From Octopus vulgaris (lineage: Eukaryota): DNA of 64,000 nt. The position numbers were made by a program, and so were the translations under genes. Location: positions 4,712,001 to 4,776,000 of the forward strand of contig OX597836.1 of assembly GCA_951406725.2 (NCBI GenBank), read 5' to 3'. Positions 1,638-60,596 of the stretch are shown one piece after another. A model generated the notes under the pieces. It saw only the letters and a list, made by a program, of their open reading frames with translations, had not been told where the DNA came from and ran no database searches. How positions within the stretch are numbered: the stretch's first letter is position 1; every line of letters begins with the position of its first letter.

Positions 1638-2344
1638 AACAATAAACTAGATGAGAACAAATATCCGTCAGATATAAATAATATATATATATATAATTCT
1701 TTCACAATTCCAGTTCATTGACGACATGCCTAGAGAGAGAGTGCATGCTACCTCTGCCATAATCTTTCTCGATTCCATTATTCTCACTGTGTTTATTCCC
1801 TCCACACAATCAATTCTTTTTTTATATTTAGACCTACTACTACTTCTTTGAAAACTATTTGCTTAGGAATTCATCTCCTTAAACGTACGTTTCCTTAAAA
1901 AATTGCTTCTATATTTGTGTCTATGATTTTTATGTTCAAATACGTATATTTTCTTTCCGATATGGCTACAGTTATGAGTTAGTAAGCTAGATTCAACAGA
2001 ATTATTTACACGTTCAAATAACATAATTCCTGGGAGCTGAGAACCCACTTGTAGCTGTTGAAAGAGATAAAGAGATAAAGAGATAGAAACCGAAAAGTTC
2101 CCAAATTCCTCAACCCATTATATGAAAAATAGTGAAGAAATAACAAAAGAAAACTCTTCCATATGTAGGTAAGTGTCACCTGTAGAGTTAATCAGGTTCT
2201 CTACAAGGAAATCATACCCAGCGATTGATGTAGTAGCATTATATATGGAACTGATATGCTTGAGGTTTATCTCTCGTTAAGATGGATTTAGTCATCGGAT
2301 AAGTCAAATAATCTCTCATATTATTTTTTGCTTGTTTGTTTTCT

Positions 2345-2637
2345 TTCTTCTCTTGTTTTAGTCATGTGACAATGGCCAAGATGGGGCACCACTTTGTAGA
2401 TGTTTAGTCTCACAAATGGACCCCTGTATTTATTTTTGTAAAGCTTGGTCCTTATTCTATCGGTCTTTTGCCGAACCACTAAGTTACAGGGATGCTAATA
2501 CACTATCACCTGTTTTCAAGCGTTGGTGGGAGACAAACATTTGTAAAAACAGATACTCGCCCAAATTGCCGACTCAGTGGGACTGAACCAGGAACCATGC
2601 GGTTGGGAACCAAACTTCTTACCACACAAGCATGCCT
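2345..2637 (-). mobile_element. SINE family A, degenerate and internally deleted
   Basis: cttattctatcggtcttttgccgaacc and gtgggactgaacc.ggaaccatg.ggttgg match family A. Confidence 0.85.
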
Positions 2638-2734
2638 GCTTCTTTAAGTGTGGTTACTGTATATATGTTTAATAATTAGTGATAATTAGGAATTTTATTA
2701 ATGTAACATTCACATCGCTCATTGACTAGTATAT

Positions 2735-2935
2735 ATTTCTTTACTACCAACAAGGGGCCAAACACAGACGGGACAAACAAGGACAGACAAACGGATTACA
2801 TCGGCCCCAGTGAACTGGTACTTAATTTATCGACCCCGAAAGGATGAAAAGCAAAGACGACCTCGGCGGAATTTGAACTCAGAACATAGCGGCCGACAAA
2901 ATACCGCTAAGCATTTCGCCCGGCATGCTAACGTT
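2735..2935 (-). mobile_element. SINE family B
   Basis: Reverse complement of the family B body (cgaccccgaaaggatgaaa, ggcggaatttgaactcagaac, gcatttcgcccggc). Confidence 0.9.
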
Positions 2936-5434
2936 GACTAGTATAGCGATAATTCCTGAGTTGTATTTGGTCTTCCACAACAGTTCATGTACCGCATTGA
3001 TGCTCTTGAATACTCTGGTCTGAGAGGAATCCCCTTCTTTCCATATTTCCACTCAAAATACTTTTCATGTCTTCTAGTTGAACCGCATTGATTTCCATTT
3101 ATTTTAGTATCGGGTGAGACTAAGTTGTTTGCTTAGTCTAAAAAATCATTACCGCTGTTCACAAGCACAGCCATATTCTTTGCATTTCAGCCAAGATTTC
3201 TTGTTTAAGGCATTCTCTTATTTCGAGTATTACTTTGTTTTGAAATAGTTTTTGTCTTTTCATTGATTTTGATATCTTTGGTGAACTGGAAGTATCGTTG
3301 CAGCGTCCGAGAGAAAATTTGTGGTATTTCTTCCGATTGTCTGCTTTCAGTTCAAATCGTTCCCAAGTCAATGTTGCCTTCCGTCTTTTCGAGATCGATA
3401 GAAATAGATATTTCCTTTTTTACACACACACTTTACTCCACACAAGGATACATCTGGAGACGCAGGTCCACACATATAGAGATGCACATCCATACATACA
3501 AACATGGTATATAGTTGCAAAACACACACACACATGCACACACAAGGAGACAAAGGTGCATACATATACAAACACACACATACACACACACACACACATA
3601 GAAAATACACAAACACGGACACGCAAACACATGAATATGCATAATAGATATATACAGATGCACAGCCATACATACATATATACATATGCATACACACACA
3701 TGCATACATACATACACACATACATACGTACATGCATGTATGCATAGGAACACACACACACACACACTGAACAACACACATGCGCACAAACAAACAAAAT
3801 GGAACGCAGTGTAAATAACGGACGGAGTCAAGACTATTGAAAAGGTTTCAAGACGCAACGAAAATTTTAGAAAAAAAAAAAAAAAAGAATTAAGTGGAAA
3901 TTTTACAGGTGAGTGTGTTAAATTATAAGGTACAAAAAGAAAATGACTCTCCCCAGATACAATAGAAATAGATAATTCAAGAGGATAAGACTGACAAAAC
4001 CGCAAGAACTTAAGATCAGGCATCTTATAATGCTTGTTCTCGCAGTGTCTACGTCGATGTTTTGATTAAGCCGTTGCCATATTTAACACATTGCATTTTG
4101 AGTTCTTTGGATGGTACCACATCTTTTGCGAACAGTCGGGGACGTGTCTCCGTTTTGAGAATGTGACACCCAAAAAACGCATTTAAGAAACAAGATGGAT
4201 GACAAAGACTGAAAAACCGGAAAGTGAAGGCGATTCACGGGTAATAACTAAGAGAAATCGAAGGGAAAGGATAAAGGCCCACACCTGGAGTTGGCTGAGG
4301 GAAAGTGGTCTGAGGTGATGCACGGAGTAATTGGTATGTAACGCTCAGGAACAAACCCTGAGAACTAATTACAGCAAGTTCCAAATATATAATAGTAAGG
4401 AATCGTCATTTTGTAAGATGTGTGGCAGAAAAAAACAAAACACTAGCCTCTTTTGAATTTACCAGACTTTGCGCTCGTGCAACGCGAAAATATTGATTTT
4501 ATCAATAATTGGGAGATTTCTTTTTGTTAGGTTTTCTTTACTTTGTTCTCCGTATATTTCCTTTCGAAGTGTTTACTTTGGTTTTAATATTCCAATACAA
4601 GAAGATCTCATTGAGATCCCACTTTCTTTGTAACTTCTGTGACGTTTATCTTCGCGATATTGATATTCTCATCCATTTCAATTAAGTGAACGGCCATATG
4701 CGCCCATCTTATTGTTGTTGCTTTCTCATCTTTAAGATTTATCTTTTTCGCTTTATCCTTTCTATAGAAGAACATCCTCGATCGATTAGAGCTGTTTAAA
4801 TATTTTCACCTTCGTGTTATTGCTTTATTCAGAATTCACATCTTTAGAATATCTACTTTGAAACATTTTTCACATTTCATATAATTCATGTTTTCGTTTG
4901 TGTTATTCTATTCCATTTTTTTGTCAATACACTGTAAGTCTTCTAAATTGTGAATTCAGTGTGTTTCTGCTGTTTTATTAATTTAATTTGCTATCTATTT
5001 CCTAGATTTTACATTGCATTTCTCATACCGTATGATTTTAGCAGTAATATCATTATTGCTGCATTTTTCATTAATCACTTATTGTTATTAAGCTTTCAGA
5101 TTTTGAAATGTTTTTTTTTTTTATTTCTGTTCCACATAACAATCCTGCTCCGAAAATGTACATTGTAAAATTACCTAAGCTCTACAAATCCAAATGTACT
5201 TTTAGATCAGTGCTGATTTCTTTACCAATATTATACCGAAGATATTTCTAGCTATGTTTTAGAGTAGAACGTAGCTGCAAGGTATAAGTGTAGTCTAGAA
5301 GCGCATTTCTCTTGGATCCATCGTGGATTTAGTTTCTTTTGATTGTGTGTGTGGGGAGGGGGGGGCACATGATTAACAATACGTTTCAGCCATTTATTTA
5401 CATTGTCATCATTAGATATTAAAAGGTTAAATGT

Positions 5435-9731: not shown

Positions 9732-10454
9732 GTGTACGCACCAAACACACCAGTCACACATGCACGCGACCATACACACAATCGCATACATACGTGAAAT
9801 TTCGTATGTTCCAAATTACACTTCAGTTTCGCTTTTAGGTATGTGAAAATTTACAGGTTTGTTTTCAAAAGGGGAAAATACGAAGTATAACGTATCCAAA
9901 TATGACATACCCTTAGCAAATACTTTGAACTGTCTTATGCCATAAAAGTACTTCGGTAATCATAGGTGATAGTTACACAGGTGCGAAGAATTATATCTCT
10001 GTAATATTTCAATTAGTAGAGACCTTTTGAACAAAATACGTTTTAAAAATATGAAATTGTTTTTAGAAAAATTATATTTCAATCTTGACACATCTATGCT
10101 TTATTGGGAATTTTGTCGGACATAAATTGAATTCTGTTCTTGATGGCGTTCGTGTAATAATTCAGAGGAAATGGACATTCTTGGACCAAAGAAAATTGCT
10201 TGCACATTATACAAATCAATTTATCCTTAGTGACTAAAAACGAAATTGGATATATTAGATTATTAATTAATAAAAGTTCTGGTTAACATAGCTAGTTTAA
10301 TAGTTATTATACACGACAGAACACCCGACAGCTGCTTCAGAGAGCTCAAAATTATGTAAAAAAGAATTAACATTTGCAGGCAAATCTAGTGGTGGCACGG
10401 AGGATGTTAGTGGTTCGATGATGAAGATTCGTTTGGTCGTTCAACTAATTGTTA

Positions 10455-11070
10455 ACGCGTTGGACGAAATCCTAAGCGGTATTTCGTCTGCCGCTACGTT
10501 CTGAGTTCAAATTCCGCCGAGGTCGACTTTACCTTTCATCCTTTCGGGGTCGATTAAATAAGTACCAGTTACGCACTGGGGTCGATGTAATCGACTTAAT
10601 ACCTATGTCTGTCCTTGTTTGTCCGCTCTGTGTTTAGCCCCTTGTGGGTAATAAAGAAATAGGTATTTCGTCTGTCGCTACGTTCTGAGTTCAAATTCCA
10701 CAGAGGTCGACTTTGCCTTTCATCCTTTCAGGGTCGATTAAATAAGTACCAGTTACGCACTGGGGTCGATATAATCGACTTAATCCGTTTGTCTGTCTGT
10801 TTGTCCTCTCTGTGTTTAGCCCGTCGCTACGTACTCAGTTCAAATTCCGCTGAGGTCGATTTAACCCCTTCGAGGTCGATGAATTAAGCACCAGTGTAAG
10901 ACTGGGGTTGATGTAATCGATTGGTCCCCTCCCCACCAAAAATTTCGCGCCTTGTGTTGAAGGTGCCCCAGGTCGACTTTACCTTTCATCCTTTCGAGGT
11001 CGATAAAATAACTACCAGTTGATTACTAGGGTCGATACAATCGACTCACCTCCTCCCCCAAAACTCCAAG
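10455..11070 (+). mobile_element. SINE family B tandem multimer (3-4 bodies)
   Basis: ggtcgacttt.cctttcatcctttc.gggtcgat repeated; first two units offset by 184 bp. Confidence 0.92.
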
Positions 11071-13461: not shown

Positions 13462-13516
13462 CAGAATGAGATAAAAATCCAAGGCCGTGAATAGTTTTAG
13501 GAACATTTATATAGAG

Positions 13517-13563
13517 GCCTTACAGCTGTTTCCGGGATATTACTATATCCTTTCAGCAGAGAC
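13517..13563 (-). ncRNA. Minimal type I hammerhead motif (core variant CUGCUGA)
   Basis: Minus strand: gtct CTGCTGA aa ggatat-agta-atatcc cg GAAAC AGCT GTA aggc. Confidence 0.7.
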
Positions 13564-13847
13564 GGTGCGAGAAAATGTTATTATAGAGAGGTATGAAATA
13601 CACAGTGAAGGTGAGGAATGAAAACAGACGTGAGATATGTAAGGATATTGTATCTGCAGTTCCATTATTTAAGCAAAATGCTGCCACGCACAAGGTACAA
13701 GAAACTTATACATACACCATTCTGCTTAAATGATGGAACTGCAAATACAAAATCCTTACGTATCTCACGTCTGTTTTCATTCCTCCACTACGCCCTCTAT
13801 TTCATATTTTCTCTACAATAGTTAATACTCAAGCATTTTATCGCACT

Positions 13848-13895
13848 GTCTCTGGTGAACGGTTATATAGAATATCACAGAAACAGCTGTAAGGC
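13848..13895 (+). ncRNA. Minimal type I hammerhead motif (core variant CUGGUGA, decayed stem II)
   Basis: gtct CTGGTGA ... GAAAC AGCT GTA aggc. Confidence 0.6.
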
Positions 13896-14136
13896 ATTCT
13901 CTTTATAAATCTTCTGATTTTTTCATCTCCTTCTTTTAACTTTTATATATATATCCATGCTAATATACGATCTGCTTTGGTCTCCTCATTCGTATCATTA
14001 TCGAACCTGGAGCTTAGTCTGTCCATAGCGCTTACTTAGCATTACCTGATACCTTTGGGTCTTCTTAACATTAATACCTCTCATACCCTCGGTATACATA
14101 CATATATATACGAATGTATGTATGTATATATACATA

Positions 14137-17660: not shown

Positions 17661-17877
17661 AAGCGCAATTTACTTAGGAACAATTTACATTTGTGCCTAT
17701 ATAGGGAATGTCCTCAACAATATACGGATGAATATATACGTGAGTCTCGTGTATTTCTTTGTGTCATAGGCAGAATGTCTGTGGTTGTATGGTCTCCCTT
17801 CTAGATCACAAAAGTTCCTAGTTTTCCTCTCTGCCCCTGCCGGGTTGATCCCTTCTTTTACATTCATGTTTATAATT

Positions 17878-18072
17878 AATGAAATATGATCATTAATTAT
17901 GACTTCTTACGTCATCGTCTATAATCAAATTGGATTAGAAAATGATTACTTTCTTATGACCTTGAACACATACACGAACATACACGCATACAATGAATTT
18001 ATAAAATATATTTGTAAATATATAAACTGTAAATACTTATATACAGACGTACATTCATTCATATATATGTAC

Positions 18073-18132
<60 letters not shown>

Positions 18133-18377
18133 ATATTTCGGAATGGTCATTTATATATATATGTATATATATATATATATTCGTACATATATATGAAGGA
18201 ATGTACGTCTGTATATAAGTATTTACGATTTATATATTTACAAATATATTTTATAAATTCATTGTATGCGTGTATGTTCGTGTATGTGTTCAAGGTCATA
18301 AGAAAGTAATCATTTTCTAATCCAATTTGATTATAGACGATGACGTAAGAAGTCATAATTAATGATTATATTTCATT
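17878..18377. repeat. Near-perfect inverted repeat, arms about 205 bp, (TA)n-rich loop
   Basis: ORFs 17899+ and 18356- translate almost identically; about 4 mismatches seen by eye. Confidence 0.97.
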
Positions 18378-18509
18378 TATATAATTGTATGTATATATAT
18401 GTATATATGTATGTGTGGATGTATGCATGTTTAGGCAATGCTTAGAAACACACATGCTTAGAAACACACACACAAACACACACACACGCATATATATATA
18501 TATGCATTT

Positions 18510-24208: not shown

Positions 24209-24944
24209 TTAATGTAGCTCTTACTATCTTTTGTCATGATGTCAGCAGGTATCATTTTAGTCTTTTTCTTATCAATGACGTGCGGTGAGTGTCTTGTAAC
24301 GATAACATATGTTCTCCCATGCAATACATGACCACCTTGCACTAACGTTGGACTTAGGAAAGATATTTCTTGTAAATATTTAGTATTTCTCCAGTTTTAA
24401 GAGTGAAAATGAACTGGAAAATAGCATGGAATCAGGGTGTGATTTTTAAAAAATTCAAGTTGGTGGTGAAGCCAAGAAGTTCCTCAACAGAAGGAATCAA
24501 CCACTCAGTTCCTTTTCATTTTTATTCTCTATGAGGAAATGATAGCTTTTACTAAAGTTCCCTGATCACAATTTACATCTGTGCCATGAGTCGAGTACAG
24601 TAGTACAAATTTACAAAATTGCCAGTTGCAGATTCAAAATATCACGAAACAAATGGAGATCTACATATAGGTAGATCATATATTTACGAAGTACAGCAAG
24701 GTATCGATTTAATATCAAAGAATTCACAGTTTAGATAATTCAACAAAAAGATAATTAATCAAAATCGCACAACGCTAGAAAAGGAAAAGAGAAAAGATCT
24801 TGAGATAAGCAATCAAACGTTACTCTTTCGTATTCATTGTTAGACATTTCAAGGTGCTAACCATATCAGATACTGAAGAAGTTTAACGAAGAATTTGTCA
24901 TCTTCGAATAGGCCATAATCCTTTGAATTATATTGTGGAGACTA

Positions 24945-25415
24945 AGGCGGTGAGCTGGCAGAAACGTTGGCACGCCGGGCGAAATGCGTAGCCGTATTTC
25001 GTCTGCCGTTACGTTCTGAGTTCAAATTCTGCCGAGGCCGACTTTGCCTTTCATCCTTTCGAGGTCGATAAATTAAGTACTAGTTACGCACTGGGATCGA
25101 TGTAATCGACTTAATCCGTTTGACTGTACTTGTTTGTCTCCTCTGTGTTTAGCCCCTTCTGGCTAGTAAAGAAATAGGTATTACATCTGTCAGAGTTCAA
25201 ACTTCGCCGTGGTCGACTTTGACCTTCATCCTTTCGGGGTCCGTTATTTAAATACCAGTTGCGTACTGGAGTCGATCTAATCGACTAGCCCCCTCTCCCA
25301 AAATTTCGGGTCTTGTGGCTAGAGTATGAATGATTCTTTAAGGCGGCGAGCTGGCAGAAACGTTAGCACACCGGTTTGAGTTCAAATTACCCCGTGGTCA
25401 ACTTTGTCTTTCATC
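24945..25415 (+). mobile_element. SINE family B dimer plus a third truncated copy running into (CAT)n
   Basis: aggcggtgagctggcagaaacgtt head; second body offset by 184 bp; new head at 25340. Confidence 0.92.
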
Positions 25416-37185: not shown

Positions 37186-37229
37186 CTTCTATCTATCTAT
37201 CTATCTACAAAACCGTATCTATCATACAA

Positions 37230-37384
37230 AATTTAGAGGACTGACCACTAAAAGTGGACAGCCTATATGCTGGATATAGACGCCAAATCGCCATTTTCCA
37301 CGAAGAGAACACATTCTTCGTGGAAAACGGCAATTTGACGTCTATATCTAACATTTAGACTGTCCACTTTTAGTGGTCTAAATT
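37230..37384. repeat. Inverted repeat, arms about 65-70 bp, 8-nt loop
   Basis: gaccactaaaagtggacag...ttccacgaaga-gaacacat-tcttcgtggaa...ctgtccacttttagtggtc; single-arm homolog at 49333-49403. Confidence 0.93.
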
Positions 37385-37482
37385 ATAAATATATATGTAT
37401 ATATATAAAAATGTGACCTCGTGTGTACCGTTGACGATTTTTTTCCTCTGTCTTCCCTTCACGGGATCTTCCCTTCTCCTAT

Positions 37483-37517
37483 GTTTCCGACGAAGAGCTA
37501 CGCTCGAAATGTTAAGC
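37483..37517 (+). ncRNA. Minimal type I hammerhead motif (variant CCGACGA)
   Basis: gttt CCGACGA a gagc-tac-gctc GAAAT GT T aagc. Confidence 0.6.
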
Positions 37518-37744
37518 CCTCCTTCTTCCCTTCTTTCCTGAGCGTCCAATAATACTATATTTGTTCCAAGTCCTCGCGTTGTTGTGTTTTTTTTGTGTTT
37601 TCTTGTTTGGATTAACTTTATACATATATATATATATTTATGTACATTCAAAAATGAGGGTGAAAAATTAGATATTAATTTAATAATACCCTTATTTTAA
37701 CACCAAGCGACCTAGCACAATAAACCAGGGAGACAATACATATT

Positions 37745-37916
37745 TATCCGTAAATATAAGAGAGTTAACGTTAAATAGGTTAACTCTAGTGCTAGAAATA
37801 GCTCCTCCGGTATAATCGCCGACGATACCTCCACATAGAAATAGCACTACCCTCAACGTAAGGAAAGTGAAATACAACTAAAAAGTGGATTAATGTTAAC
37901 TCTCTTATATTTACGG

Positions 37917-37919
<3 letters not shown>
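37745..37919. repeat. Inverted repeat, 30-bp arms with 115-bp spacer
   Basis: tatccgtaaatataagagagttaacgttaa / ttaatgttaactctcttatatttacggata (1 mismatch). Confidence 0.9.
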
Positions 37920-37947
<28 letters not shown>

Positions 37948-37948
37948 A

Positions 37949-37979
<31 letters not shown>

Positions 37980-38012
37980 CTTTATTTTAAGCAGCAGAAA
38001 ATTCAACAAAAT

Positions 38013-38050
38013 CTGTTACTCTGAGTTTCTCGTTGCCGTTCATCAGACAG
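38013..38050 (-). ncRNA. Minimal type I hammerhead ribozyme, nearly intact
   Basis: Minus strand: ctgt CTGATGA acg-gcaa-cga GAAAC tcaga GTA acag; perfect 4-bp stem I, GNRA loop in stem II, GUA cleavage triplet. Confidence 0.8.
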
Positions 38051-39060
38051 TTTTTGCTAGAATGGAACATATATATTAATTCAATCTATACTCTTACAAA
38101 CGCTACACCTTTAAAAAGAAATGGACTTGTTTGATTGGCCCTTTAGAAAAAACGGTCAATCTTCGAGCGATAAACAAAAAGGTCAAAAATATATGTATAT
38201 ATATATAAAAACTTATAAAAATTATAAAATCCGAGGAAAATACCGAGGAAAAAACCTGTTGCCGTTAATGAAGACAGTACAAATTAATGCATAGAAATTA
38301 AACCTGTTATAAATACTGCAATACATATTTATATTAAAATCCACATATATATATCAACATACACAAAAGGATGCGCGTAAACGCCATACATACATATACA
38401 GACGTATGAATATGAATCTAAATTATACACATAAAAGCATGTGTACATATATTCACGCAAACCGTCTCGCACGCAAGCTAAAATTCATCTATGTAGCAAT
38501 TCTCATATACTGAGCAAGGAGGGGGAACGAAAGAAAGGGAAAGAGAGAAAAAGGAACGGAGGAGGGGTGGGGAAAAAACTTGTAGCGATGTTATTTGGCA
38601 TCTATAGAGGCCAGTATACATACACAAGTTTGAATTGATACATATACATACCGTCGTGTATATGTGTGCTTAAGCACAAGCATACTTTCACTTACACATA
38701 CACAGATACGCATGCTTACAAATACATATGCTTTGCTATACACAAATTTATATAAACATTCTAAATTTGACAACATTGCTTTTTTTATAAAAAAACATTG
38801 CTTTTAAAAAATGGGTGCATTAATAAAAATATATACGAAAGACCTATAAAATAAAATATAACATCCTATTTTGGGTCATTTATAAATAATCAAGGTAATA
38901 TAAATAATCAAGGTAATCTTATGCAATACAATAACATGAAAACAAAGTTTGTAGGTTTTTCCTAATATATATGTAGAAACAATAAGACTTTGCTATAGGT
39001 CCGTTGTAGCGCTCAAGAGTCAAAATCAAAATCAAAAAATCAAAATACAAAATATATACT

Positions 39061-39289
39061 CTATCCATATGGTATATTTATATTCGACATTTTAAATTTA
39101 GCCTTGTGCCTACATAAGTTCATTAATTCACTTCTTTGATTCAAAGAATTATTGTCTTTGAATAATATGTGCATTTTTTCTAATAAACAAAGCCTGCACT
39201 TGAAATTATATTTGTAAGCTCCATGCCTGTATGGTGCCGCCCTGTCCAGAATGCTCCATGTCACGTTGAAAGGTGGGGCTTCCTTTTCT
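39061..39289 (-). pseudogene. C-terminal fragment of Penelope-like GIY-YIG endonuclease (left arm, frame intact)
   Basis: VTWSILDRAAPY..KCRLCLLEKMHIL..SLNQRSELMNLCRHKAKF matches the W.I....PY...C.LC..EK..I....LN.R.EL...CRH pattern of PLE ORFs. Confidence 0.85.
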
Positions 39290-39530
39290 GGGAACTAAAA
39301 GAAAAGGAAGCCCCACCTTTCAACGTGACATGGAGCATTCTGGATAGGGCGGCACCATACAGGCATGGAGCTTACAAATATAATTTCAAGTGCGCAGGCT
39401 TTGTTTATTAGAAAAAATGCACATATTATTCAAAGACAATAATTCTTTGAATCAAAGAAGTGAATTAATGAACTTATGTAGGCACAAGGCTAAATTTAAA
39501 ATGTCGAATATAAATATACCATATGGATAG
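39289..39530 (+). pseudogene. Same GIY-YIG fragment (right arm), starting WELKEK, with a 2-nt frameshift near 39393
   Basis: tgg gaa cta aaa gaa aag...; tgcgcagg versus tgcagg in the left arm. Confidence 0.85.
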
Positions 39531-40564
39531 AGTATATATTTTGTATTTTGATTTTTTGATTTTGATTTTGACTCTTGAGCATAACGGACCTATAGCAAAG
39601 TCTTATTGTTTCTACATATATATTAGGAAAAACCTACAAACTTTGTTTTCATGTTATTGTATTGCATAAGATTACCTTGATTATTTATATTACCTTGATT
39701 ATTTATAAATGACCCAAAATAGGATGTTATATTTTATTTTATAGGTCTTTCGTATATATTTTTATTAATGCACCCATTTTTTAAAAGCAATGTTTTTTTA
39801 TAAAAAAAGCAATGTTGTCAAATTTAGAATGTTTATATAAGTTTGTGTATAGCAAAGCATATGTATTTGTAAGCATGCGTATCTGTGTATGTGTAAGTGA
39901 AAGTATGCTTGTGCTTAAGCACACATATACACGACGGTATGTATATGTATCAATTCAAACTTGTGTATGTATACTGGCCTCTATAGATGCCAAATAACAT
40001 CGCTACAAGTTTTTTTCCCCACCCCTCCTCCGTTCCTTTTTTCTCTCTTTCCCTTTCTTTCGTTCCCCCTCCTTGCTCAGTATATGAGAATTGCTACATA
40101 GATGAATTTTAGCTTGCGTGCGAGACGTTTGCGTGAATATATGTACACATGCTTTTATGTGTATAATTTAGATTCATATTCATACGTCTGTATATGTATG
40201 TATGGCGTTTGCGCGCATCCTTTTGTGTATGTTGATATATATATGTGGATTTTAATATAAATATGTATTGCAGTATTTATAACAGGTTTAATTTCTATGC
40301 ATTAATTTGTACTGTCTTCATTAACGGCAGCGAGGTTTTTTCCTCGGTTATTTCCTCGGATTTTATAATTTTTATAAGTTTTTATATATATATACATATA
40401 TTTTTGACCTTTTTGTTTATCGCTCGAAGATTGACCGTTTTTTTCTAAAGGGCCAATCAAACAAGTCCATTTTTTTAAAGGTGTAGCGTTTGTAAAAGTA
40501 TAGATTGAATTAATATATATGTTCCATTCTAGCAAAAACTGTCTGATATATGAATATCCACCTT

Positions 40565-40624
<60 letters not shown>

Positions 40625-41704
40625 ATATATATATGCATATGTATGTATATACATATGCATATATATATATACGTACACATACATACATGTATGCATTCAT
40701 ACATACATACCTGCAGATGAGTGCGAGCGAGATGTAAATACGTGGAGGATATATAAATATTTAATACTTATTTCCAAAGGAACGTATTCACAAATAAAGT
40801 TTGCCGTAATTGCGTTAAATACCCTCGTGTTCCTTCATCCGTTTATATATCAAAGAGATAAAGTGTGACATGTTGGTGGGCTTACGTTACCATTTCTGAC
40901 ATTCCTAACGAGCACTTATAATATCCGCCCTCGATGCAGATATTAACTACTCATGTTCGTTCGAAATGTGTTATATTTCATCCCAATTATCTATATTTCT
41001 GATTTCAGATTTGTCAATTTCTCCATTCCGTTTTAATGCCGTGTTACAAAATTTGGCGAACTGGAAGAAACGTTAGAATGTTCGATCAATTATCACGTGG
41101 TTATAAGCATGTTGTTTTTGAATGACAGGTTAAAGTCCAACAGGGATCAACTCTGCTTTCTGTCCTTCCTGGGTCAGTAAAATAAATAACCAGCCAAAGC
41201 AATTTATCGATAGCATTTCTTTGCACTCGTTCCAGTTATCTATATTCACCTTCTTAAATCTCACAAAAGCGCGCAAACTTCGTCTACATCTAGCAGACAT
41301 GCACGATGTCTTGTGACAGCTAACAAAATGTATGTCACAAGAAAACAGACTTAGATGCTCCAATGAAATCACACCATTGCTCAGTATATCGAAGCCTTAC
41401 ACCAGGGGTCTTTCGTTGACCTTTTGGGAGCAGAAATAAAAAAGTATCGCTCGATGAAATTTATAGAAATCATGCAGTTTTCGAAAGGTCATATTAAACA
41501 GTTTTCTGATTGTAATTCTGTGAGAAAAATCTATAATAACCGCGTTTAATTTAATCATCCATCTTTAATTACCGAATCATTTTCATTTTCATATTCATTC
41601 TTGTTTCGTTTAGGTTCGTGACTTTTATTAACGGAAATCATGATCGCTTTCTGCATCCAATAAGAATAAAATAGATATAGACAGATATCTTAGACAAAAC
41701 TGAT

Positions 41705-48982: not shown

Positions 48983-49213
48983 ATTTAGCCAACGAAAATG
49001 CACGCACTATAAATACACTTGCTTCAGTTTTATTTTAAATAACTCCAACGAATTTTTGTGAAAGAGTTTTCAATTATGTTCATCAAACGTCAAGCTGAAC
49101 GCTAATGGAGAAAATAATTGAAAAGTCTTTCAAAAAAACGTTGGAATTTTATAAAATAAAGCTGAAGCAAGTGAATACCAAATATATAGAGCGCGTGTTT
49201 TCATTGGCTAAAT
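48983..49213. repeat. Diverged inverted repeat, arms about 100 bp
   Basis: atttagccaacgaaaa..cacttgcttcagttttatttt..ttttcaattat / ataattgaaaa..aaaataaagctgaagcaagtg..ttttcattggctaaat. Confidence 0.88.
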
Positions 49214-54294: not shown

Positions 54295-54407
54295 CACTGA
54301 TTGTGTTATGGGAGAATCCTGAACACCCCCACGTGACTGAGGGTGGACTTACAGATTGAAATAAATAAAAAAACAGGTGACCTCGTAGGGGGAGTAGTTG
54401 ACGGTTT

Positions 54408-54881
54408 AATGGCGGCGAGCTGGCAGAAACGTTAGCGCGCCTGACGAAGTGCTTGGTGCTATTTCGTCTGTCTTTACGTTCTGAGTTCAAATTCCGCGAA
54501 GGTCGACTCTGCCTTTCATCCTTTCGTTGTCGATAAATTAAGGACCAATTGCGTACTGGGATCCATTTAATCGACTGGGCTCCTCCACCAAAATGTCGGT
54601 TTAGGGTTAGAGTAGAGTAGAAAATAATGTTTGCCGTCATACGACGGAGATCTGGCAGAAACGTTAGCACGCCGAGTAAAATGCTTAGCGGTATTTCGTC
54701 TGCCGTTACGTTCTGAGTTCAAATTCCGCAGAGGTCGACTTTGCCTTTCATCCTTTCGGGGATCCATAAATTAAGTACCAGTGAAACACTGAGGTCGATG
54801 TTATCAACAATCCCACCTGCCGACAAAATCCAGGCCTTGTGCCTATAGTAGAAAGGATTATTATTATTATCATTATCATCA

Positions 54882-55223: not shown

Positions 55224-55379
55224 AAGGTGGTGGCGTCAGCGGTGGGGGTGGATGGAATAGTTAGAGACGCTGCTGGTGTCGCTGGTGTTGGTGTATTTGG
55301 TATTGGTTTCTGTGATTGCGTTGGGAATGGTAAAGGTGAGTAGCAGATGGTATGTTGGTGTCGGTGGTACAGAAAATAA

Positions 55380-55975
55380 AATTCTTTACTGCCAACAAGG
55401 AGCTCAACATAGAGGGGACAAACAAGGACAGACAAACGGATTAAGTCGATTACATCGACCCCAGTGCGTAACTGGTACTTAATTTTATCGACCTCGAAAG
55501 GATGAAAGGCAAAGTCGACCTCGGTAGAATTTGAACTCAGAACGTTGCGGCAGAAGAAATACCTAATTCTTTACTACCCACAAGGGGCCAAACACAGAGG
55601 AGACAAACAAGGACAGACAGAAGGATTAAGTCAACTATATCGACTCCAGTGCGTATCTGGTACTTAATTTATCGACCTCGAAAGGATGAAAGGCAAAGTC
55701 GACCTCGGCAGAATTTGAACTCAGAACGTTGCGGCAGAAGAAATACCTAATTCTTTACTACCCACAAGAGGCAAAACACAGAGGAGACAAACAAGGACAG
55801 ACAGAAGGATTAAGTCAACTATATCGACCCCAGTGCGTATCTGGTACTTAATTTATCGACCTCGAAAGGATGAAAGGCAAAGTCGATCTCGGCGGAATTT
55901 GAACTCAGAACGTAGCAGCAGACGAAATACGGCTATGCATTTCGCCCGGCGTGCTAACGTTTCTGCCAGCTCGCT
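55380..55975 (-). mobile_element. SINE family B trimer: one head plus three 184-bp bodies
   Basis: caga.gaaatac at 55551, 55735 and 55919. Confidence 0.95.
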
Positions 55976-56744
55976 ACAGAAAATAGTAGCGCAAGTTTGT
56001 ATTGGGATGGTAGGGGTTTTAGATGGATTTTCTCATCAGTGTTGTAACCGTTTGTTGTTTTGCTGCTATTGACCGTGTGTTGGTCTTATTGCTGTTTGTG
56101 GTAAAGTAGTGTGGTTGTGGTGAAGGTGATGGCTTTGAAATTTTTATATTTTTAAACGGAGAGTCATTTTTGAAACGTAGACCACCGCACCCATAACATG
56201 ATCCAGGTGAATTATTATATTTCCCTCTAAATACGCTGCTCCTTGACGGTTTCATCAGTAACGTGAGTTCAATTCTCGGAGTAGAAGGTCTGTTAGATTT
56301 TTGAGCAAGGCATGCGATTTCATGTTGCTTCAGATCCTTCGACGGAAAATGATTGTCAGTAATAGATCGGGCGGAGGGAAGTTAAGCGTGCAAAAGACTA
56401 GGGTCCCGTCCTGGTGGTTTCTTTCGCTCCCAGATGGTCAAACATGTTGTATGCCCTAAACAAGAATATCCACAACAACGTCTTTAACTGAAATCATTAA
56501 ACAGAAAAGCACAGTCAACTTTAGAGGGATTGAACCAAGAGCATAGTGAGCCAGATTAAACACCACAAGGCATTTCATTTGAGGACAGAACAAGACTGAC
56601 AATATGTAATGGCGACCGCTACTGCGGTTGTTGCTGTTGCTGTTTGCTTGTCTTTCTGTTTGTTGAGCGAAGCGGGCTTCGTCCCAGTGGGAGAAGTCCG
56701 AAACGTGGTCCTTTGCTATTCGTAAGACCCGCAGAAGAGAAAGC

Positions 56745-56812: not shown

Positions 56813-57521
56813 CTGCTGTTCCTGCTTCTGTCGTCATGGTCGTCGATAGACTGATGACTGAATGATTTTAGATATAATGTTAAAGGTGTTTCTATTTGCT
56901 CAAATCACAACACAGGTTTGCTTTTAATTATTTCAGATAAAACCTACTGGTTTGGTCCGCTTTATATGTTATTACTATTATCACTAACGTCCACAGCACT
57001 GTTGCCGTGTATGTCCGGTCACGCTGCTTTCTCGGATTCCCACGAGTCTCTGTTGCCATCCAATTCTATTAAGCATTAAATTGGAACCTCGAGTTATTAT
57101 AAATCTTTCATTAGCTGATTACACAACGATGGACTCCGCTCCAATGGACCCGTTGCAGTTAATCTCTTCATAGACCTTGGAGATCCTAGCAGGTTAATCA
57201 TTTAATATTCTTCAGCTCAGTATCAATGTTAGAAACAGCGTGGGCTCAGTTCAGCTCTTCCACTATCTCTTCACAATCCGCCATGATGCACGCCCATGAG
57301 TTGGCCATACGTTGCCCGGGCATTGTGGCTGAGCGGTTGCAATGCTCTGCCAAAAGGCAGCCCTTAACACCGTGAGGTATTTTTGAGATTTCCCCAAACA
57401 CACAGCTCATCCGCTGCCTCCTCACAATTCGCCTTGCTGCAATCTCATGATATCACTATGTTCCCCCGGCAGTGTGGCTGGACGGGTGGTATACCTTGCT
57501 AAAGGACAGTCCATGACTATA

Positions 57522-57757
57522 AAGGCGGCGAGCTGGCAGAAACGTTAGCGCGCCGGGCGAAATGCTTAGCGGAATTTCGTCTGTCGTTACGCTCTGAGTT
57601 CAAATTCCGCCGAGGTCGACTTTGCCTTTCATCCTTTCGGAGTCGATAACTAAGGTACCAGTTACACACTGGGGTCGATCTGATCGACTTAATCCCTTTG
57701 TCTGTCCTTGTTTTCCCCCCCCCCTATGTTTAGCCCCTTGTGGGTAGTAAAGAAATA
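57522..57757 (+). mobile_element. SINE family B monomer (reference copy); central segment resembles the Meta-SINE domain
   Basis: A box TGGCAGAAACG, B box GAGTTCAAATTC, ggtcgactttgcctttcatcctttcggagtcgataa; domain name recalled, not searched. Confidence 0.92.
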
Positions 57758-58167
57758 TATGTAGTGACTGGTCGTTACTCCATGAGGTATTATTCTGGAT
57801 ACACGCTTTCCCACATCTCTTCCGCAACCTCTTTCACAAGCTACCATGCTGCTCTCCCGTTGCTTCACCGTATCCCTCACAGGGTGACTGAACAGATGCA
57901 ATGCTTTGACAAAAGACCACCCGTAACTGTGCACGGCCAAGTCATCACTCCGTTAGGTAGTTTTCAAAGTGTCCCTATAACCTGGGCTTGGTATATAGTA
58001 CTATCTGATCTTACCGTAGTGTTAAGGGGTATGGAGTAGTAGCCTGTAGTTGAGTGCAGTGGTAGCAGAGTGGCAATAGTGGTGTGGTGGTGTGAAAGTG
58101 TTGTAACTCTGGGTTGAGACGGTGCCGTCTAGTGGTGATCATGTCAGCTACTGCAGTGATGCATAGT

Positions 58168-60135: not shown

Positions 60136-60309
60136 ATAGCAGCAAATTTATACTCTGGGTGTAGAAGACGATGGGTTCGAAGATATCCGTGCAAGTATCT
60201 GCTAATGTGTGCCTCTGTGTGTATGTATACTATTAAACAACAATTAAAATGCTCTATGCTTGTTCGAGCCCCTGCTCGCACCTCTTGAATATAAAAACGT
60301 TTCTGTTTA

Positions 60310-60545
60310 TAGGCGGCGAGCTGGCAGAATCGTTAGCACAACGGGCGAAATGCGTAGCCGTATTTCGTCTGTCTTGACGTTCTGAGTTCAAATTCCGCCG
60401 AGGTCGACTTTGCCTTTCATCCCTTCGGGGTCGATAAATTAAGTACCAGTTACGCACTGGGGGGGTCGATGTAATCAACTTAATCCCTTTGTGTGTCCTT
60501 GTTTGTCCCCTCTATGTTTAGCCCCTTGTGGGTAATAAAGAAACA
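60310..60545 (+). mobile_element. SINE family B monomer
   Basis: Near-identical to 57522-57757. Confidence 0.95.
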
Positions 60546-60596
60546 TATATCTGTAGCTTAATTTTTATAAATAGTTTTAATTATAAGTGTAGGACT

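Follow-up and report, generated by a model that had tools for sequence, protein, structure and literature searches.

A 64,000-nt stretch of the Octopus vulgaris genome (the window; positions 4712001 to 4776000 of contig OX597836.1, C23 in our numbering, in an assembly of 2.8 Gb and 227 contigs) carries, at 37980-40568, a long palindrome made from the 3' end of a Penelope-like retroelement (PLE). Its arms, at 38042-39289 (element on the minus strand) and 39300-40547 (plus strand), are 98.4% identical over 1,254 columns, a match far above chance (BLAST E = 0), and are separated by the 10-nt spacer GGGAACTAAA (39290-39299). A preliminary description made from the letters alone had reported two inverted arms of about 1.25 kb joined at their 5'-truncated ends, with the spacer continuing the reading frame of the right arm as W-E-L-K. 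Both statements were confirmed, and W-E-L-K is genuine coding sequence of the intact open reading frame (ORF) of the family. The head-to-head join shows a 3-nt microhomology, TCT, at 39287-39289.

The left arm comprises the last 75 codons of the ORF, a 1.09-kb 3' untranslated region (UTR), and a hammerhead motif, and it runs through AATAAAG onto (TA)n at 37980. The earlier statement that this arm is complete through the hammerhead, AATAAA and (TA)n agrees with the sequence, the hammerhead being recognized as a motif only. The right arm, frameshifted at 39392-39393, terminates at CTGTCTGAT, with CTGAT of the ribozyme core ending at 40547, also as described. Past CTGAT lie a 9-nt filler, then TCCACCTTGTTT, which corresponds to positions 38-49 of the 70-nt tail found at one of two kinds of family end (see below), and then (TA)n. 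At this end, about 99 nt were replaced by the filler and the final 22 nt of the tail were lost; because the 12-nt remnant survives, the right arm is the tailed arm. The junction of CTGAT, filler, and tail occurs once in the 2.8-Gb genome, which rules out a programmed truncation within the hammerhead. The target-site duplication is not readable inside the (TA)n microsatellite at the locus, and no obvious host exon was seen by eye among 303 stop-to-stop frames of at least 70 aa. The features are listed in Table 1.

Table 1. Features of the palindrome and its flanks (positions in the window)
Feature	Position	Strand	Basis
(TA)n target, left side	37917..37979	.	Tandem repeat; (TA)n adjoins family ends
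Left arm, untailed 5'-truncated copy, unit ~2046-3365	37980..39289	-	Arm alignment, unit comparison
AATAAA just inside the untailed end	37981..37986	-	Sequence
Type I hammerhead motif (predicted cut site)	38013..38050	-	Motif and published Hydra table
C-terminal 75 codons of the ORF plus stop (CxxC..EK..N.R.E..CxH endonuclease end)	39061..39288	-	74/75 identity, motifs
Head-to-head join: TCT microhomology plus the right arm's 10-nt loop	39287..39299	+	Arm/unit alignment
Right arm, 5'-truncated copy from unit ~2033, ending inside the hammerhead core	39287..40547	+	Alignment, private changes
9-nt filler replacing the rest of the hammerhead, AATAAAG, and the first 37 nt of the tail	40548..40556	+	Tail alignment; junction unique
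12-nt remnant of the 70-nt tail (positions 38-49)	40557..40568	+	Tail alignment
(TA)n target, right side	40569..40610	.	Sequence, tandem repeat

The identity of the element was established from its relatives. Searches of the genome with the 221-nt left end returned 736 candidates, and the 40 that were scored were all 100% identical; 24 of those 40 form 12 minus-then-plus pairs, 1.3 to 6.2 kb apart, and all 27 loci containing the 40 matches were used for family comparison. Two copies (L031 and L032) hold an intact 711-aa ORF, and the family unit of 3,365 nt consists of a 138-nt leader, this ORF, the 3' UTR, and the hammerhead. A full 727-codon open frame is present in at least 22 of the best 150 endonuclease matches. 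The 75-aa frame of the left arm is identical at 74 of 75 positions to residues 637-711, the C-terminus, of the family protein (P0001). The suggested origin of this coding fragment in a PLE ORF was upheld. Pfam profiles gave no relevant match on P0001 or on 37 aligned homologs; a PDB sequence search with a profile of those 37 likewise returned no relevant match. One homolog of the family ORF (P0003) carries PF01541, which we take to be GIY-YIG.

Scoring of 7,996 candidates yielded 1,074 homologs of P0001 at E ≤ 0.001, the 120 listed being 43-58% identical, and motifs were counted in an alignment of 37 of 121 proteins chosen across the homolog list. P0001 is a single ORF in which reverse transcriptase (RT) precedes a C-terminal endonuclease (YRDD at 344, endonuclease-end motifs at 667-697). 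The RWK motif lies N-terminally at position 37 (32 of the 37 proteins), DKT lies at 113 (36 of 37), and a CxCx5C linker lies at 562 (34 of 37; in L031 the second C is replaced by F), while CxxC..EK was found in all 37 and LN.R.E..C.H in 29. By eye, the 711-aa ORF can be matched to the published Hydra alignment with no inserted segment (no IFD), and the cysteine pair of CCHH between VVY and TYTG is absent from P0001. Published defining features of the Hydra clade are RWK, DKT, CxCx5C, CxxC/CxH, a hammerhead, and a (TA)n target (PMC8557442). The protein motifs, with CxxC/CxH around E and N, are common to this family and the described Hydra elements (Hydra-1_Obim, Hydra-2_Amil, and Penelope-13_HM), as are a single ORF of ~710 aa and the 3' hammerhead layout (PMC8557442); the insertion target of the family is also (TA)n. 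The C-terminal position of the endonuclease motifs and the presence of a hammerhead rule out a Naiad or Chlamys element, and the count for DKG (0 of 37) rules out Neptune, Nematis, and Penelope-Poseidon. An origin as a non-long-terminal-repeat retrozyme was ruled out by the coding remnant, the head-to-head build, and membership in an autonomous element. Judged by its motifs, hammerhead, and target, the element is a Hydra-clade PLE, and the ORF, the motifs, and the family copies together uphold the original recognition of a hammerhead-bearing PLE in inverted arrangement.

The family differs in several respects from those published. Hydra-1_Obim belongs to a different family, its sequence being widely different by eye. 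Hydra-clade elements are generally shorter than 3 kb, with one entry of 3,045 (PMC8557442), whereas this unit of 3.37 kb exceeds that figure through its 3' UTR; the tail is ~70 nt, compared with 30-40 nt in published Hydra elements (PMC8557442). Also distinctive are its ~3,000 ends with exact matches and the many full-length frames that are open. The left arm diverges by only 0.15% from L033 and by 0.23% from one arm of L028, and with so many intact frames the family is young. It is apparently an uncatalogued member of the clade; its architecture has already been published for PLEs.

Next, the ends of the family were examined. Two kinds of 3' end were found: untailed ends, in which AATAAAG runs onto (TA)n, and tailed ends, which stop ~70 nt further on, having taken in the opening 70 nt of the following unit. 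Genome-wide, exact patterns located 1,593 untailed ends and 1,465 tailed ends, the latter figure counting tandem junctions as well. Pairing was counted on contig C1 up to 190.75 Mb, where the 187 ends (87 tailed and 100 untailed) fall into 122 clusters: 59 two-end head-to-head clusters, 3 more complex ones, 21 single tailed ends, and 39 single untailed ends. The two-end clusters are tailed plus untailed in 57 of 59 cases, tailed plus tailed in 2, and untailed plus untailed in none (p = 2e-15 against random pairing). Singles were inspected by eye (20 of the 21 tailed, 27 of the 39 untailed); an untailed inverted partner missed by the exact pattern was present in 8 of 20 tailed cases, and a tailed partner or a piece of tail in 9 of 27 untailed cases. 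Clear solo copies, with the 5' end straight on (TA)n, numbered 3 tailed (L105, L112, and L116) and 6 untailed (L124, L127, L129, L143, L145, and L147), and the remaining inspected singles were damaged, complex, or unparsed. From the pair counts and the partners found at singles, head-to-head is the commonest form of the family. The preliminary view of the window locus as something special was thus not supported: a young Hydra-clade PLE family inserted here in its usual form, and the copy, slightly damaged, is dead debris.

The lengths and sequences of the arms were compared within insertions. Arms of one insertion were 0-3 substitutions apart in 14 of 17 classed two-arm insertions and shared rare alleles, showing that both arms share a source sequence. 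Among 32 long insertions, the tailed arm was longer in 16, the untailed arm in 14 (by up to 2.2 kb), and the two were equal in 2. This set excludes the window locus, complex or unparsed loci, and loci in which one of the outer ends is missing (for example, L028, L032, L035, L044, L092, L098, L103, L107, L109, L115, L135, and L141). Joins mostly carry 0-6 nt of microhomology. In L023, L026, L029, L060, L097, and L107 the arms are separated by additional element sequence, either inverted or duplicated, indicating more than one template jump.

Many insertions are short. Stubs, with less than 200 nt between end patterns, account for 35 of the 59 head-to-head pairs on C1; the stubs of the family (L048-L082, and genome-wide) are palindromes of ~230 nt with two hammerheads and one tail. 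We parsed 42 stubs (the 35 plus 7 of 8 more; L142 was left out). Of their 84 arm ends, 39 lie 80-84 nt before the untailed site and 7 lie further out, while 2 fall near the ribozyme cut (30-39 nt), so that ribozyme-cleaved RNA is not favored as the template. Joins overlap by 1-6 nt in 35 of 42 stubs (1, 2, 3, 4, and 6 nt in 10, 8, 2, 7, and 8 joins, respectively), are blunt in 4, and contain filler in 3. Exact palindromes centered on CTAG were found in 129 stubs genome-wide. These identical stubs might have arisen as a self-copying miniature inverted-repeat transposable element (MITE), although stubs joined at many other points suggest repeated independent formation. The TTCTAG at the stub wall could be a splice acceptor of the kind reported at helix I of the D. 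virilis Penelope (PMC4209133), yet the stubs carry unspliced bases.

To account for this build, we propose that the window locus arose by twin-primed reverse transcription into (TA)n, with a one-off deletion at its right end; we assign this reading a probability of about 0.62. The enzyme would nick both strands of (TA)n and, because (TA)n is self-complementary, both nicked strands would offer the same primer, giving two equivalent primers that face opposite ways. On an RNA that has not been cleaved, one primer would start at the untailed site and the other at the tailed site; each site is followed by bases able to pair with TA and by a bulged hairpin, alike in the two cases. Both cDNAs would then stop, and their 3' ends would anneal by microhomology and be filled in. 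In the case of stubs, the same two sites in the upstream pseudo-long terminal repeat (pLTR) would be used, and both cDNAs would run off a fixed RNA 5' end, which the stub wall would place 81-84 nt before the untailed site.

Several features of the family bear on this proposal. Both ends behave like priming sites: they are precise, each also occurs alone, and each is followed by TA-pairing bases (CATAT at the untailed site and TCTA at the tailed site), of which TCTA is copied into 11 of ~100 tailed ends. The bulged hairpin starts 6 nt after the untailed site (TACTC-TACC-ACT-GGTA-TTT-GAGTA) and 8 nt after the tailed site (CGCTC-CTT-GTAA-AAG-TTT-GAGCG), and the motif occurs at exactly two places in the unit; a similar hairpin was seen by eye after the hammerhead of the coral element Hydra-2_Amil. 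The Poseidon PLE protein PAc (Frangieh et al. 2024, PMC11167929) offers a biochemical parallel, being a predicted dimer that cuts and extends both target strands, uses uncleaved RNA, and initiates at two internal RNA sites, one at either edge of the tail, in the vicinity of a stem-loop. PAc represents another clade, however, and its tail lies in the ORF start (PMC11167929), whereas that of the present family lies in the 5' leader. The strict pairing of tailed with untailed ends, the greater length of either arm, the stub wall, and the twin hairpins favor, we infer, twin priming over a fold-back copy.

That second possibility was the one raised in the preliminary description, in which the left arm was copied from the right by fold-back. 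A cDNA started at the tailed site would turn on microhomology, copy itself, and be cut or joined at AATAAAG, with asymmetric joins and solo arms explained by later deletion; related ideas are self-priming (PMC3846280) and "EN-mediated resolution" of the tail (PMC8557442). Such a copy is possible for the window locus taken alone, where the TCT/AGA pair with its 10-nt loop fits a fold-back, and it would account for arms that share source alleles and for the exact CTAG-centered palindromes. A fold-back copy cannot outreach its template or gain a tail, however, so either the separate priming of two cDNAs or a later deletion is required for the 14 insertions with a longer untailed arm. The end base is the same in solo untailed copies, fold-back would have to halt precisely at AATAAAG about 1,600 times, and two start sites were observed in vitro (PMC11167929). 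The fold-back reading was thus not supported, and we consider it rather unlikely.

Twin priming also has evidence to contend with. Near-symmetric joins are enriched: 6 of 32 lie within 15 nt, where 0.56 would be expected (p = 1e-5), and 10 of 32 lie within 100 nt, where 2.9 would be expected. The window locus is itself near-symmetric with the tailed arm longer, as fold-back predicts, so fold-back keeps some probability. Two enzymes halting at one barrier or at the RNA end also explain near-symmetry, at the cost of an added assumption. The insertions with a longer untailed arm and the solo arms could be products of later deletions in unstable palindromes. The hairpin shuffle test is circular because the motif was defined from the two sites, and the hairpin was not clearly seen by eye in Hydra-1_Amil. 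The in vitro data come from another clade, and the part consulted of that report does not describe head-to-head products (PMC11167929).

The inverted arrangement itself has precedents. At its 5' end, Penelope-13_HM bears an inverted copy that is 5'-truncated, and it has a hammerhead on each strand; an inverted 5'-truncated PLE copy with a tail at one end only is drawn in Fig. 2 of the same report (PMC8557442); palindromes at PLE head-to-head joins were noted by Arkhipova et al. 2013 (PMC3846280). The inverted 5'-truncated copy, the palindromic join, and the one-sided tail are therefore common to this family and to the inverted pLTR and tail of endonuclease-positive PLEs (PMC3846280, PMC8557442). 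What the family adds is a count, in which the one-sided tail emerges as a near-strict rule and either arm may be the longer. No statement of a twin-priming model for PLEs was found in the openly available papers searched; subscription papers may hold one. In L1 twin priming, which Ostertag and Kazazian are said to have described in 2001, the second target strand primes a second cDNA that is joined at microhomology, and the inversion reportedly involves nonoverlapping parts of one RNA. In the present family, both cDNAs would start at fixed sites, 70 nt from each other, and cover one and the same 3' region, so that a palindrome results. For Hydra-clade PLEs as a whole, we hold at even odds that integration occurs by obligate twin priming, in which a dimer would nick both (TA)n strands, two matching RNA hairpins 70 nt apart would direct one RT to each start site, and the resulting cDNAs would be joined head to head.

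We also considered whether the palindrome is an assembly artefact, either a self-folded read or a misjoin. With two low-complexity zones masked, the right arm has 11 private events (5 substitutions and 6 indels) and the left arm has 1. The 9.3 private changes per kb of the right arm compare with a median of 1.2 in 39 arms longer than 600 nt, and half of them are indels, as an artefact might produce; one arm of L028 (4791-6204) has as many private changes per kb. In contigs from four DNA or unclassed runs, the unique right flank (40717-41200) was covered in 3 of 4 and the arms appeared at high summed depth. Neither the center nor the right-end junction was spanned by a contig among 32 listed pieces of ~20,300, a result that neither supports nor refutes the junctions. 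An artefact is nevertheless very improbable: the tail remnant at the end of the right arm is absent from the left arm, which could not have templated it, the flanks of the two arms differ, the tailed-plus-untailed build recurs across the family, and the join of an independent insertion (L094) lies within ~10 nt of that in the window. Consensus error and error-prone repair both fit the surplus changes of the right arm; that they are consensus errors within a real structure is possible, at somewhat under even odds. No ADAR signature was apparent in the right arm, where 2 of the 5 private substitutions are A>G. Separately, the arm ends of L090, L094, L026, L103, and the window share a purine-rich stretch at unit ~2040-2055, a possible stop or join hotspot.

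To gain further insight into the ribozyme, the hammerhead was compared with the published Hydra table (File S2, PMC8557442), and its identification rests on this comparison and on the motif. Stem I is formed by CUGU/ACAG (38050-38047/38016-38013), followed by CUGAUGA (38046-38040), GAAA from 38029, and GUA at 38019-38017, and cleavage is predicted between 38017 and 38016. Stem II has 2 bp flanked by A.A, and stem III is the palindromic ACUC-A-GAGU. Stem I is that of Hydra-2_aMil and stem III that of Penelope-3_HM, and stem II, though short at only 2 bp, is flanked on both sides by an additional base, as in many File S2 entries (PMC8557442). Rfam gave no hammerhead at gathering score across the 64-kb window and, at E ≤ 5, no hammerhead family in 37200-38200, where sub-threshold microRNA-like matches to hairpins and (TA)n were returned.

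The preliminary description had envisaged a minus-strand transcript in which the 1.25-kb duplex would be freed by the hammerhead as a defined substrate for Dicer or ADAR. The geometry does exist, in that the GUA site lies 25 nt beyond the duplex; however, the duplex covers stem I and CUGAU. Because the exposed half-ribozyme stems from the one-off deletion, found once genome-wide, a duplex ending at the cleavage site is an accident, and typical copies bury the whole ribozyme in the duplex on either strand. The cost of folding the ribozyme was 20.0 kcal/mol with the antisense arm, which would be transcribed first, against 4.7 kcal/mol without it (foot of the duplex only), in line with the earlier caution that the duplex may inhibit the ribozyme. 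Stem III is of the palindromic dimer type, with a self-duplex at -7.4 kcal/mol; hammerheads of this type are reported to be inactive as monomers and to need a second copy (PMC4209133), and that of PAc is reported to be protein-assisted (PMC11167929). The copy is also very young and shows no sign of selection. We therefore regard a duplex delimited by self-cleavage as extremely improbable. If it lies within a transcript, the copy here would form a plain long duplex with its ribozyme half buried.

The locus itself, a single damaged copy in a family with well over a thousand, is unimportant alone. The formation of tandem and inverted PLE structures and of the one-sided tail has been named as an open question (PMC8557442), and the counts presented here separate the models: pairing is near-strict, the longer arm may be of either kind, the 5' wall is sharp, and almost no ends lie at the ribozyme cut. 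The family also supplies intact ORFs for reconstitution. Obligate twin priming, if true, would account together for the tail on one side only, the inverted pLTR, and the stubs that carry ribozymes, and the genome would have been seeded with on the order of a thousand perfect inverted repeats, some long and some short. The family scatters near-perfect inverted repeats, and those within transcripts would form duplex RNA.

Other repeats in the window were recorded. The 3' end of another repeat family, containing a core that resembles a hammerhead (CGACGAAGAG...CTCGAAATGTTA), lies between (TA)n runs at 37410-37622 (plus strand); it is probably another PLE end and has very high summed depth in the read contigs. 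Adjoining (TA)n at 37243-37378 is a 136-nt imperfect hairpin, 84% self-complementary and MITE-like, with sub-threshold microRNA matches only. An element of ~180 nt at 37740-37918 has 25-nt terminal inverted repeats (TATCCGTAAATATAAGAGAGTTAAC), and its right end adjoins the (TA)n hit by the PLE. The second long palindrome of the window (17870-18384) has 232-nt arms that are 97% complementary and a (TA)n core, with no hammerhead core seen, and older imperfect, MITE-like palindromes (75-76% self-complementary) lie at 13501-13914 and 48983-49213. A loose scan gave candidate hammerhead-like cores (CTGAnGA...GAAA) at 56258 (minus strand) and 49294 (plus strand). Finally, a family that presumably resembles octopus short interspersed elements occurs at 10451-10920, 24944-25286, 54404-54814, 55376-55974, 57520-57760, and 60305-60549, in part as 184-nt tandem units.

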